From a virus (Duplodnaviria; Heunggongvirae; Uroviricota; Caudoviricetes): DNA of 5,251 nt. A program made the position numbers. The stretch lies in IMG/VR virus record IMGVR_UViG_2541047122_000016. The stretch is one strand, 5' to 3'. Shown piece after piece: positions 1 through 3,000 of the stretch. Numbering within the stretch: the first letter of the stretch is position 1; every line of letters starts with the position of its first letter.

Positions 1-3000
1 ATGGATATACACTGCCACTGTTGCGATTGGCTGTCCTGATACCCTGGCAATGGTTCGCCATTTGGGATCATTTGGCATGTCATGCCACAATCTGAGCCAG
101 GCATTAGCCATACTCACCTCATCTGATACCGAACTTTACCCTCGAACATCCGGAAGAAATCCGGCATGAATATTGTTGGTCAATGCACGACAACAGCATT
201 ACCAGGCTGACCCCCACTGTTAGTCAGGGTGCCCCAGGCGATCGCCGCTGCGACAAAATCATCCACATCTTTCACCAGCCGATCCCTCCGTTCGACGATC
301 TCACGGTAATATTCAGAGCTGTGACTGCGCATACGGGCCACCAGCAGAGGCGGCATTGCCTTTTCGATCGCCGGTAACAGAGCCTGAATTTTTTCAACAG
401 CATCAGGGGTGTCTTTATCCAGCCAACGGAAAATTTTCTGGGTATTACGAGCCAGGGCTTCCGGATGGCTGTCGTCGTACAGTTCCGGGAACGTCATCCC
501 CAGCTCGAAATAAGTCCGGGCTATTTCAGCTGCAGGAACTTTCTCACCGTCCGGATAGGCCCAGGCATTGATCGCCATGCGGATGTGCTCATGTTTGATT
601 TTCATGAATCCCCCTTTCCTTCGCCCTGAGTGGTATCCTTCTTTTTGTAAAGTTCTGGGTTCAAAGATAATTTCCCCTTGGAGTATGCAGCAGCTTCCGC
701 AGCCCTCCCCTTCGGAACTATTTCACCAGGACGCTTACGCCACATGTAAATAGCTTCGCGGGTTATCCCATAAAAATCGGCAACCCTCTGAACAGAACCA
801 AAAAACTGGACAAGTTCATCAACTCGCATTTTACCTCCTAAATCTAAGCATTTTTAGATTGCAAGATAATTTTTTTTAGGTCAATGCAATCTAAAATAAT
901 TTATATTCAATTTGCAGGAGAAAATGATGGAAAGCCTTGGCTTCAGGCTTAAGAGACTTAGAAAAGATAAGGGGCTGACCCAAGTAGAACTGGGTAAGCT
1001 TTCAGGCGTGACTGGGGTTACTATAGGGTACTGGGAGAAAGATCTAAACGAACCAGGTAGCAAAGCTCTAAGTAAGTTAGCCCAGGCATTAGGAACTACT
1101 GAGTCCTATCTCCTATATGGAGTATCGTCTCCTGAATTATCTTTTGTACAAAGTACCTCAGGCACCAAGATCCCCTACCTTTCGTGGGGTGAGGCGATTT
1201 CTTTCCTAATCTTAAAAGGAGAGAAAACAATGGGAAATGTCGATAGAATCACCACATTCTTTGATGTCGAGGAAGGTGATTTTGCCGTTTCAATGCCTGA
1301 TGACACAATGCATAACCCATCAGGATCACCGAGTATCCCAGTTGGTGCTACTGTGATCCTAAGGCCAGGAGAAAGTTATAAAAATGGCAGCATCGTCGCT
1401 GTAATAGTTCCGGATCCGCTTAAAAATGAACCATCTATGACTATAAAGAAATTAGTTATTGATGGGAAGCTTGTGTATTTAAGCCCTCTCAATCCACGCT
1501 ATCAGTCATCCTTACTTACACCAGAGTGTAAAATTGTTGCCGTAGCAAAAGGTGTACAGTTCAACTTATAACCCGCCACGTCCTTTACTTGAGGTCGGCA
1601 ATGCCGACCTTTTTTTTAAATTAATCTAGATTTACCTTGACTGAAAAACTAAATACTTTTAGATTTATTACATACCACCCTACCTCGCCCCACAGAACGT
1701 CGGGCAATACCTCGAGTTACCCGGCAGTGGTCAGGGGTTAAGTAGCCAGCCCGAGGCGTATGAACATGACGGCGGGAACACTTTGTATAACAGCGCAGCA
1801 GGTTTTTAGTTCCGCGACCCGGCGTTAAGGGTAAATGAGGTCAACATGGATATGCTCAATCTTGGCAACAATGAATCTCTGGTGTGCGGAGTATTCCCCA
1901 ACCACGACGGCACGTTTACCGCGATGACGTATACCAGAAGTAAAACGTTTAAAACCGAAGCTGGCGCGCATCGCTGGTTAGCAAGAAACGCTAACTGATT
2001 AGCGCCAGTAAAAACAGGTTTCCACAGGTTAATTTACCCTGAAAAGTCAGGGCATAACACGAAAGCGCACGGCGAAGTTAGTCTCTCTGTATAGGTCGTC
2101 GTTAAATTTAATTCGACCGTGCGCTTCTGGTTGTGGCAATCCGCGAAATGGCGCGGCGGTAAGTATGGCGGGGTTATTCCTTCCCCCGTTGAGGACACCG
2201 GGTTGTCAGGTTGACCATACGCTTAAGTGACACCCCAGCCACAACAACCTCTGTTATCACTTTTCTGGTGATTCGGCGGAAATGGATATCCGCCCTTTTT
2301 AAAGTGAATTTTGTGATGCGGTGAATGCGGCTATGCGCACGCGGAACAGTTAAAGCAGTAAGGCGGTCTTTTACTGGCGTAACGAGCATCAACTAACCCG
2401 ACGTTAATTGTTAACTGGTTAACGTCACCTGGAGGCACCAGGCACTGCATCACAAAATTCATTGTTGAGGACGCGATAATGGAAACGTTATTACCAAACG
2501 TTAATACGTCTGAAGGTTGTTTTGATATTGGTGTTCTGCTCAGTAATAAAGCGTTTACTGAGGATGCCATTAATATGCGGAAATATGAGCCTTATCTGCT
2601 CAATGATAATTCCATTCTTTCCCGAATTGCCCTTATTGAACTTGGTATTTTCGGAGAACGTCAATGACTTCAGCATTTGCACTGATGATGACGGTTTTTC
2701 TTATAACGGGTGAATCACAGAATGTGATTACCGGAATTTATGCCAGTAAAGAATCCTGCCTCCAGGCAAGAGACGAGCAAAAAATTTCTGGTGAATGCCT
2801 CCCGGTAAAAAAAGTATCGCTGTACCTGAATAACGAAACACCGGCTGGATAACCCTCCAGCCATATTAACACCATACCAACGGATTAAAAATGCCAGCAA
2901 TGGCAGGGATTTGTTCACCCTTAAATCTGTAATGAGGTTTATCAATGAGCACTGATAAAGAAGAATTTGCGCTATATTGCGAAGCAAAAAATGACAAAGT

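Follow-up and report, generated by a model that had tools for sequence, protein, structure and literature searches.

The region at positions 1680-2300 of the stretch of DNA analysed here (the window; 5251 bp, IMG/VR record IMGVR_UViG_2541047122_000016) very probably makes up the promoter-proximal half of an early-left operon of the dicBF type in a lambdoid prophage. The identity of its parts, namely the dicBF operon, the small protein YdfA, the DicF precursor, and the small RNA (sRNA) DicF itself, is known biology. Two elements are new: a covarying RNA domain, likely pseudoknotted, that lies in the 'spacer' of long DicF and is common to the Pban leader of phage P1, and a short, Rfam-invisible DicF paralogue without the segment that pairs with ftsZ. 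The original prediction, made from the sequence alone, had described structured, poorly coding DNA between a promoter and a terminator that could specify a small protein and/or a structured regulatory RNA; both are encoded, as YdfA and, by homology, a DicF precursor. The long stem, GC hairpin, terminator, 50-codon open reading frame (ORF) with its Shine-Dalgarno (SD) sequence, and promoter-like site that it had listed are all present at the positions given; the DicF identity and the closed pseudoknotted domain were missed. What holds of it is the picture of 1680-2300 as one putative transcribed unit that specifies both a small protein and a structured regulatory RNA, under a leftward-type promoter that the repressor controls.

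Positions 1600-2480 of the window are 100% identical to many Escherichia coli O157:H7 chromosomes, in which they are annotated with DUF1391 and dicB. Judged by its sequence, the window is the immunity and early-left region of an E. coli O157:H7 lambdoid prophage. Its genes follow the order known from the Qin prophage of K-12 (dicA-ydfA-dicF-dicB-ydfD-ydfE-intQ), and because the order matches, 1680-2300 was placed at the promoter-proximal end of a dicBF-type operon. The interval from ydfC to dicB in K-12 can be aligned with about 2027-2480 of the window; K-12 ydfB and ydfC themselves are absent, and only 38 nt separate the ydfA stop codon from the first hairpin (H0) of the untranslated RNA. The features of the region are as follows:

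1617-1667, plus strand: promoter-like site from a motif scan (TTGACT at 1637-1642, TAGATT at 1660-1665, 17-nt gap) with overlapping palindromes
1846-1998, plus strand: ydfA homologue encoding a 50-aa DUF1391 small protein (Pfam PF07151)
2037-2052, plus strand: hairpin H0, CCCUGA-AAAG-UCAGGG, present in the minimum free energy fold
2064-2125, plus strand: long stem H1 (5' strand 2064-2076, 3' strand 2112-2125), from the fold and K-12 homology
2130-2245, plus strand: closed RNA domain of about 116 nt with three hairpins and a likely pseudoknot
2130-2137 with 2238-2245: helix P0, closing the domain
2141-2145 with 2152-2156: helix P1, the GC hairpin CCGCG/CGCGG
2158-2160 with 2197-2199: helix P2a
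2169-2173 with 2184-2188: helix P2, its loop containing UCCUU
2200-2208 with 2228-2236: helix P3
2209-2211 with 2221-2223: helix P3b
2163-2168 with 2215-2220: pseudoknot S1, GUAUGG with CCAUAC in the P3 loop
2246-2261, plus strand: single-stranded spacer placed by K-12 alignment, ending in ...GUUAUCAC at a predicted RNase E site (between about 2261 and 2262) that is followed by UUUUCUGG
2262-2300, plus strand: short DicF variant, with seed UUUCUGGUGAUUC, a 6-bp hairpin (2275-2280 with 2289-2294), an 8-nt loop, and a U tract (2296-2300)
2301-2478, plus strand: dicF-dicB spacer, or dicB leader, on the same predicted transcript, 91% identical to K-12

The RNA downstream of ydfA is structured, as originally claimed. 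RNAfold gave -96.3 kcal/mol for 2020-2300 (z = -2.69; 2 of 200 shuffles folded as well), and the helices are kept across homologues with compensatory changes, the outcome that had been sought from covariation analysis of the stems in homologous prophages. At the center of this structure is the closed domain. Among 28 diverse sequences, 92.5% of cells were paired and 12 pairs had changed on both sides, compared with 33-54% in slid controls; when the sequences were shuffled, 0 of 500 trials reached the observed values for four of the five summary measures, and 8 of 500 reached the count of further pair types. Six of the nine pairs in P3 covary (e.g., GUUGCCA/UGGCAAC in phage P1 and GUAACCA/UGGUUAC in Izhakiella), P0 alternates between GGC/GCC and GGU/ACC and is held in K-12 by two G.U pairs (GUUGUGGC/GCUGCAAC), and nearly all of 46 distinct P2 segments form hairpins on differing stems (CGGGG, CUGGG, CAGGG, CCCGGG, CCAGGUG). 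Helices P0 to P3 were recovered independently by RNAfold from the window alone and by RNAalifold from the alignment, the latter adding two invariant 3-bp helices (GGU/ACC and GGU/GCY). Nucleotide identity to K-12 is 94% in the domain and 91% in the dicF-dicB spacer, compared with 83% in ydfA, 77% in dicB, and 74% in ydfD, and the unpaired motifs CGGUAAG, GGUUGA, and GCYURAG are near-invariant across genera. Conservation in related prophages, the absence of which was to have counted against the original prediction, was found for both the domain and YdfA.

Three Rfam searches returned no family covering 2000-2262 and no riboswitch match, and the Rfam scan that had been proposed as a check failed to detect DicF as well. 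A literature search, which was incomplete and could have passed over an earlier mention of the block or of the short variant, yielded no description of the domain fold. Two smaller observations concern the domain itself. The P2 loop (2174-2183) carries a pyrimidine motif, UCCU(U/C), that resembles an anti-SD sequence and is present in most variants despite the varying stem; for some variants, pairing with an AGGA located in the next linker is conceivable, with inconsistent covariation. The sequence CACAACA (2241-2247) raised the idea of an AgvB-like anti-sRNA, which we rejected: a GcvB mimic is unlikely because the motif forms the 3' strand of P0 and K-12 replaces it by CUGCAAC, which is wobble-paired. 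The agvB genes are found in the late region, downstream of PR'.

The domain is widespread. BLAST located its core (2130-2253) in 4416 of 5426 complete E. coli genomes (81%), in Stx2c phages, in phages P1 and P7, in one Salmonella phage, and in one phage recorded from Actinobacillus; pattern scans added E. albertii, E. ruysiae, Shigella, Citrobacter, Trabulsiella, Erwinia, Izhakiella, Serratia symbiotica, and 120 IMG/VR loci. The resulting sample comprised 143 instances with 73 distinct cores, and a covariance model detected exactly one copy per locus. Every class has the same order: the domain, a variable single-stranded stretch of 10-60 nt, and a GGCGG...CCGCC-U5 terminator. In Qin- and window-type loci, the DicF seed takes the place of the variable stretch, which is unrelated in Stx2c-, pPE4-, P1-, and Erwinia-type loci. 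A terminator lies within 170 nt downstream of the domain in 75 of 76 distinct sequences, the exception being a decayed Shigella copy. The domain follows a repressor gene in the window, K-12, pPE4, F1055, and the Stx2c phages; in the last of these it lies about 290 nt past the promoter that follows the repressor gene, with about 10 nt between P0 and the terminator, and in P1 it begins about 40 nt past the C1-controlled Pban promoters. The P1, Stx2c, and pPE4 loci keep the RNA and are missing ydfA. Since these contexts are early, repressor-controlled operons, the domain is best regarded as a leader element that is independent of ydfA, the RNase III stem, and the DicF seed.

Several of these loci show further peculiarities. 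At the loci of F1055 (a Salmonella phage), Serratia, Trabulsiella, Erwinia, and Izhakiella, an enlarged terminator hairpin encloses an SD sequence and the ATG of an ORF that continues across the U tract (MFYRGTAFFTQQTRASPGDG...); a related sequence lacking the ATG follows the Stx2c-type terminator. A sequence like a tRNA T-arm (GGTTCAATTCC / GGTTCGATTCC) lies upstream of the domain, at about 1385-1420 of the F1055 locus and about 130 nt upstream in Erwinia and Izhakiella. ARAGORN found no tRNA gene at this sequence in any of the three, and the tRNA link was dropped; P1 has two tRNA genes about 450 nt downstream of its domain. In phage pPE4, which was recorded from Actinobacillus and has an immunity region resembling an E. 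coli prophage, the block consisting of the P0 3' strand, the variable stretch, and the terminator is tandemly duplicated (CCCCGCCACAACAACCCATGTTGATTACCTTTTGGCGGGT twice).

Upstream of the domain, the H0 homologues carry a CUCUGA/UCAGAG or GCCUG...CAGGC hairpin at the same place. In H1, AGCGCACGG (2064-2072) pairs with CCGTGCGCT (2117-2125), and the stem extends to 2064-2076/2112-2125 with one bulged A. Among 29 variants, the changes in H1 are mostly transitions that keep a G.U pair on the plus strand (AGCGCAUGG, AGCGUACGG, AGUGCACGG), and its inner part alternates between CGAA/UUCG and CGAG/(C)GUCG types. The dicBp transcript is the source of DicF in K-12, with RNase III making the 5' end of a stable 190-nt form (PMC10448788, citing Faubladier 1990) and RNase E making the 53-nt DicF; no internal promoter was found, and the two species both accumulate in stationary phase (PMC10448788; PMC5069750). 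Terminated and read-through transcripts both exist (PMC10448788). Counting 190 nt back from the K-12 terminator leads to a point within CCGUGCGCU or at its edge, this sequence being the 3' strand of the K-12 counterpart of H1, and the annotated K-12 DicF starts at the UUUCUGG homologous to window position 2262 or thereabouts. By homology, H1 is thus the predicted RNase III processing stem for the 5' end of 'long DicF' (to within 5-10 nt). The long stem had been proposed as part of a possible structured regulatory RNA at the map position of nutL; by homology it is a processing stem and not an element of the nut type.

The 3' end of the region is a DicF homologue. A terminator scan found the hairpin at 2275-2294 followed by CTTTTT, and K-12 dicF (K-12 locus 2883-2935) aligns to window 2262-2300. 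The first 10 nt are identical (2262-2271; UUUCUGGUGA), divergence begins at nucleotide 11, with nucleotides 11-14 differing, and the seed, the GGCGG/CCGCC hairpin base, the U tract, and the downstream flank are all kept. The K-12 hairpin interior UAUCAGUUUUACUCCGUGACUGCUCUG (about 17 nt), which includes the segment that pairs with ftsZ, is replaced in the window by AAAUGGAUAU, an 8-nt loop, giving a predicted sRNA of 39 nt with a hairpin of -10.7 kcal/mol compared with -15.9 in K-12. The Rfam DicF model (RF00039) found no match in the window at E<=1, nor in the 321-nt slice 2000-2320 at E<=10; the K-12 DicF control scored 76.7 bits against a gathering threshold of 48 bits. Set against what defines this family, the window copy has the 5' seed, the position between ydfA and dicB behind a repressor gene, and the 3' end at an intrinsic terminator; it does not reach the gathering threshold and lacks the 3' region complementary to the ftsZ ribosome-binding site (RBS). 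[quoted passage not shown] In K-12, the 3' region of DicF pairs with ftsZ and pykA and the 5' end with xylR (PMC5069750). The K-12 segment AGUUUUACUCCG, complementary to the ftsZ RBS CGGAGAGAAACU, is absent from the window, and the best duplex of the window RNA with the ftsZ leader (-16.8 kcal/mol, compared with -38.5 for K-12) is worse than that of 97% of shuffles. With the ftsZ/pykA-pairing segment lost, the short DicF should not block division as K-12 DicF does. Change is concentrated inside the DicF terminator hairpin, where at least four unrelated interiors share one GGCGG/CCGCC base (locus L011 compared with L008 from E. albertii, L136, and L075); because K-12 pairs ftsZ with the interior, this part of the hairpin may be a second swappable targeting module.

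A 90-nt query covered to at least 80% placed the short variant in 442 of the 5426 complete E. coli genomes (8%). It coincides with no annotated feature in any listed record, including the identical O157 record that was inspected. It occurs also in E. albertii and in IMG/VR contigs, with a change in the loop (AAACGG) or a G.U wobble in the stem (GGUGG). Enterohaemorrhagic E. coli (EHEC) is usually said to carry four DicF copies. Rfam finds four in EDL933, and 5-6 places in O157 genomes match the domain query, counts that are consistent with the window holding an uncounted fifth copy.

The terminator at 2275-2300 is therefore not the end of a discrete transcript of about 0.6 kb, as had been supposed; it is the 3' end of a DicF-like sRNA within a longer operon that runs on into dicB, ydfD, and the exonuclease gene. 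The description of the region as poorly coding stands with the exception of ydfA. That ORF (1846-1998, plus strand, 50 codons) has an SD sequence, GAGG at 1837-1840, 5 nt ahead of its ATG and matches PF07151 (DUF1391) with 98.8 bits (cut-off 27.3; E = 1.3e-28). Its product is 80% identical to K-12 YdfA and falls in phrog_751, which has no function assigned; identical O157 genomes annotate it as 'DUF1391 family protein'. The only other ORFs of at least 30 aa inside 2000-2300 are 2119-2214 (plus strand), 2034-2198 (minus strand), and 2047-2139 (minus strand), with two more overlapping the edge. The first two are hit by 1-nt indels among close homologues (CCCC or CCCCC at about 2183-2187), and hidden small ORFs in 2000-2300 were rejected because of such frameshifting indels.

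The promoter-like site at 1637-1665 matches at 9 of 12 positions; one such site was found compared with 1.7 expected in shuffles. A 20-bp palindrome, AATCTAA-N6-TTAGATT, occurs at 841-860 and 885-907, where cro and the repressor gene diverge, and recurs at 1617-1634 and 1646-1667, around the promoter-like site. These palindromes probably serve the 219-aa S24 repressor encoded in the window as OR- and OL-type operators. Because they flank and overlap it, the site is better supported, so that the promoter originally proposed at 1637-1665 gains from the shared palindromes what its own match does not provide. Its position corresponds to that of K-12 dicBp, and we regard 1617-1667 as a candidate analogue of pL/dicBp, with transcription starting at about 1672. 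The 5' leader (1666-1850) folds unremarkably (RNAfold, z = +0.58).

Together, these features suggest the following sequence of events. A transcript from about 1672, arising at the operator-overlapped promoter (1617-1667), would comprise a 173-nt leader, ydfA, and then 300 nt of untranslated RNA to the terminator at 2275-2300; ydfA would be translated from it. An RNase III cut at H1 would release a long species of about 172-177 nt, from about 2124-2129 to 2300, and an RNase E cut in the AU-rich single-stranded stretch before UUUCUGG (at about 2261/2262) would yield the 39-nt DicF. Termination would occur at 2296-2300, and read-through of this weaker terminator would allow expression of dicB, ydfD, and the recombination genes. 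Homology with K-12 DicF suggests that the short form would be an sRNA of the Hfq type that uses its 5' seed for base pairing. The domain is most likely cis-acting, as a processing scaffold: P0 would set the RNase III-made 5'-monophosphate tail beside the 3' tail with its RNase E site and seed, and would insulate seed and terminator from the upstream mRNA. In this way, the domain would set the split between the stable long RNA, the short sRNA, and read-through, which is the least certain step of the scheme.

Several points weigh against this reconstruction. The promoter match by itself is at chance level, and the processing sites were all placed from their K-12 homologues, with a precision of about 5-10 nt. 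Pairing of the short DicF with xylR is weakened, the 10-nt K-12 match (GGUGACGUUU) being cut to GGUGA. The pseudoknot helix S1 is weak, with one compensatory lineage (the phage P1-type GCAUGG/CCAUGC) plus wobbles, and two singletons are mismatched; its invariance was partly imposed by the search patterns, and two scans for S1 variants returned mostly chance matches, the three true homologues among them being one wobble and the two mismatched singletons. The domain sequences are closely related, with an effective number of 2.0 in the model. The domain is equally conserved without the RNase III stem (in P1, Stx2c phages, and pPE4) and at loci with neither a DicF seed nor an AU-rich spacer behind it, and a scaffold role does not explain the near-invariance of the unpaired CGGUAAG, GGUUGA, and GCYURAG.

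A scaffold accounts for the Qin-type loci. Because it leaves unexplained both the invariance of unpaired nucleotides and the loci without H1 or a cleavable spacer, two other roles for the domain were kept under consideration. It is possible, if rather unlikely, that the domain is a cis-acting leader RNA that controls the adjacent terminator, be it a factor-independent antiterminator in the style of put or an attenuator that senses a ligand or a protein. It would then decide expression of the early-left operon (dicB/kil and the recombination genes, or the ban operon in P1), DicF-type sRNAs would be its terminated by-product, and the domain might represent a new class of leader RNA governing terminator read-through in the early-left operons of N-less lambdoid prophages and the P1 ban operon, a proposal that we put forward just as tentatively. 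The domain is always in the leader of an early, repressor-controlled operon, an intrinsic terminator follows within 170 nt in all but one of the 76 distinct contexts, no N-like gene is present, the stretch between domain and terminator varies freely, K-12 has both terminated and read-through transcripts, and near-invariant unpaired nucleotides are what contact with a conserved host machine or a ligand would lead one to expect. However, the closed multi-helix pseudoknot has no sequence similarity to the two stem-loops of HK022 putL/putR, no second copy occurs in the rightward operon within 4 kb, no conserved alternative pairing was found between domain and terminator, and there is no Rfam riboswitch match. 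Processivity is also not obviously needed where the operon part of the window has one good plus-strand terminator; a local effect would suffice. Somewhat less likely still is that the domain is a stable structured RNA acting in trans, for example on a host protein or on the ribosome via the anti-SD-like P2 loop, to which seed and terminator are appended. The 190-nt form in K-12 is stable and accumulates in stationary phase, the Stx2c-type RNA is nothing but domain and terminator with about 10 nt between them, UCCU(U/C) recurs in most P2 loops though the stem varies, and the domain is more conserved than the neighbouring genes. Such an RNA need not stay in an early-operon leader, yet it does in six of six contexts examined; it has no known partner, and in K-12 the long form is not the end product but is converted further by RNase E.

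The remaining explanations fared worse. The original prediction had placed the region where lambda has N and nutL, which would make the small ORF an N analogue and the stems nut elements. The map position, downstream of the repressor gene, stands, with the same topology of repressor gene, terminator, promoter, and then the region; H0 (CCCUGAAAAGUCAGGG) is loosely boxB-like, and a boxA-like GUGCUCUYUUCG precedes P0 in some homologues. Yet the ORF is a DUF1391 protein without an arginine-rich N-terminus, the boxB-like hairpin (2037-2052) precedes the boxA-like stretch (about 2119-2130) by about 70 nt, the opposite of the order in nut sites, the window 'boxA' (GUGCGCUUCUGG) is part of the RNase III stem, and the P1, Stx2c, and pPE4 loci keep the RNA without ydfA. 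With no N-like protein and no ordered boxA and boxB, a lambda-like module is largely refuted and highly improbable. As a separate observation on this stretch, the 12 nt on the 5' side of P0 (window 2119-2130) read GUGCUCUYUUCG or AUGCUCUUUCCG in non-Qin variants, which is boxA-like (UGCUCUUU), and GUGCGCUUCUGG/GUGCGCUUCCGG in the window and K-12. Least probable of all is that 2000-2300 is decaying prophage DNA or a hidden small protein gene. The left end of the prophage is defective, with both the exonuclease and integrase genes truncated, and some phage records annotate a 'hypothetical protein' over the homologous stretch. Against decay or coding stand 94% identity to K-12 where genes reach 74-83%, compensatory and wobble-only changes on the plus strand, the 1-nt indels in candidate ORFs 2119-2214 (plus) and 2034-2198 (minus), and the presence of the domain in 81% of complete E. 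coli genomes.

Beyond DicF, the dicF-dicB spacer is a putative second conserved leader RNA ahead of dicB. It matches STnc100 (RF02076) at 2293-2511 with 29.5 bits (E = 0.0013), under the gathering score of 47; K-12 scores 34.4 bits. The spacer is more K-12-like (91%) than dicB (77%) and holds an almost invariant block, GUUAAUUGUUAACUGGUUAACGUCACCUGGAGGCACCAGGCACUGCAUCAC. Only one convincing plus-strand terminator was found in the window operon. The neighbouring genes of the window, assigned by Pfam, are:

180-605, minus strand: YdaT-like protein
602-829, minus strand: P22-type Cro
912-1571, plus strand: 219-aa repressor with helix-turn-helix and S24 (LexA/CI-type) domains
2479-2667, plus strand: dicB (Pfam DicB, E = 6.5e-36)
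2664-2852, plus strand: ydfD (Pfam DUF1482, E = 2.9e-15)
2945-4189, plus strand: truncated exonuclease VIII
4171-4722, plus strand: truncated integrase
4795-5142, plus strand: ORF with a DinI-like domain (about 4939-5142)

The exonuclease VIII ORF (414 aa) overlaps the integrase ORF (183 aa) within 2945-4722. O157:H7 strain TR01, identical over window 1600-2480, has, within 5349-8881 of its locus, a full 2472-nt exonuclease gene, a DUF4224 gene, and an integrase gene cut by the end of the locus; because TR01 has the full exonuclease and the DUF4224 gene, the window copy carries a deletion at the left end of the prophage. Past the DinI-like ORF, 5212-5248 on the minus strand gave a weak match to the 3' hairpin of CssrB, a Shigella sRNA (20.8 bits, E = 0.49), which probably reflects no more than a terminator hairpin.

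Among the bacterial sRNAs, DicF was one of the first to be known, and a link to EHEC virulence has been made. Since the short DicF escapes the Rfam model and is unannotated in the listed records, a fifth paralogue that differs in function may have been overlooked in DicF copy counts and 'quadruple-deletion' strains alike. The stretch of RNA from the RNase III site to the RNase E site has so far been regarded as a spacer; here it is a covarying domain, likely pseudoknotted, and it offers a mutable target for asking how a toxic operon splits its output between sRNA and read-through.

The closest known system is the Qin dicBF operon (ydfABC-dicF-dicB-ydfDE), which has the same gene order and the same promoter position behind the repressor gene. 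At the protein level, YdfA is 80% and DicB 65% identical, and the untranslated RNA upstream of DicF is 82-94% identical. The window differs from Qin in having no ydfB or ydfC and in its repressor, a 219-aa LexA/S24-type protein compared with the 135-aa DicA. The window and Qin DicF share their first 10 nt, the GGCGG/CCGCC terminator base, the U tract, and the downstream flank; in place of the hairpin interior of about 17 nt, however, the window has an 8-nt loop, and the Rfam model is blind to it. With the 190-nt long DicF of K-12 (Faubladier 1990; Ragunathan 2023, PMC10448788), the window shares the RNA body and a stem whose distance from the terminator fits, although its predicted product is about 15 nt shorter. 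The published accounts of long DicF that were consulted give its ends but not its fold, and the closed pseudoknotted domain is unmentioned in them.

The 'dicF-like region' of P1 and P7 has helices P1, S1, P2, and P3 and the invariant junctions in common with the window, followed by an intrinsic terminator. Unlike the window, this locus is without a DicF seed, RNase III stem, ydfA, or dicB, and partners for P0 are not evident; the match covers the domain core only, and the annotated 'dicF-like region' overlaps it partly. The put element of HK022 is comparable by position only, as a structured early-operon leader RNA of an N-less lambdoid phage that lies upstream of terminators. Identity with put, which King et al. 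reportedly described in 1996 as two stem-loops without a pseudoknot, was rejected, since there is no sequence similarity to putL or putR, the architecture differs, and no second, rightward copy exists. The HK022 immunity region showed no similarity beyond the repressor gene to the domain and five related loci, and the domain covariance model R1 found nothing in HK022 at 20-32 kb. The window is like lambda N/nutL in map position relative to the repressor gene and the leftward promoter, and unlike it in having no N-like protein and no ordered boxA-boxB. Finally, the proposed short DicF resembles MicL-type sRNAs from within operons or 3' untranslated regions, which are cut from a longer mRNA just past a stable structure, end 3' at a terminator, and depend on RNase E cleavage guided by neighbouring stem-loops (PMC9438474). 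It differs from them in that the upstream structure in the window is a large, sequence-invariant, pseudoknotted domain that is kept even where no cleavage-derived sRNA is apparent.

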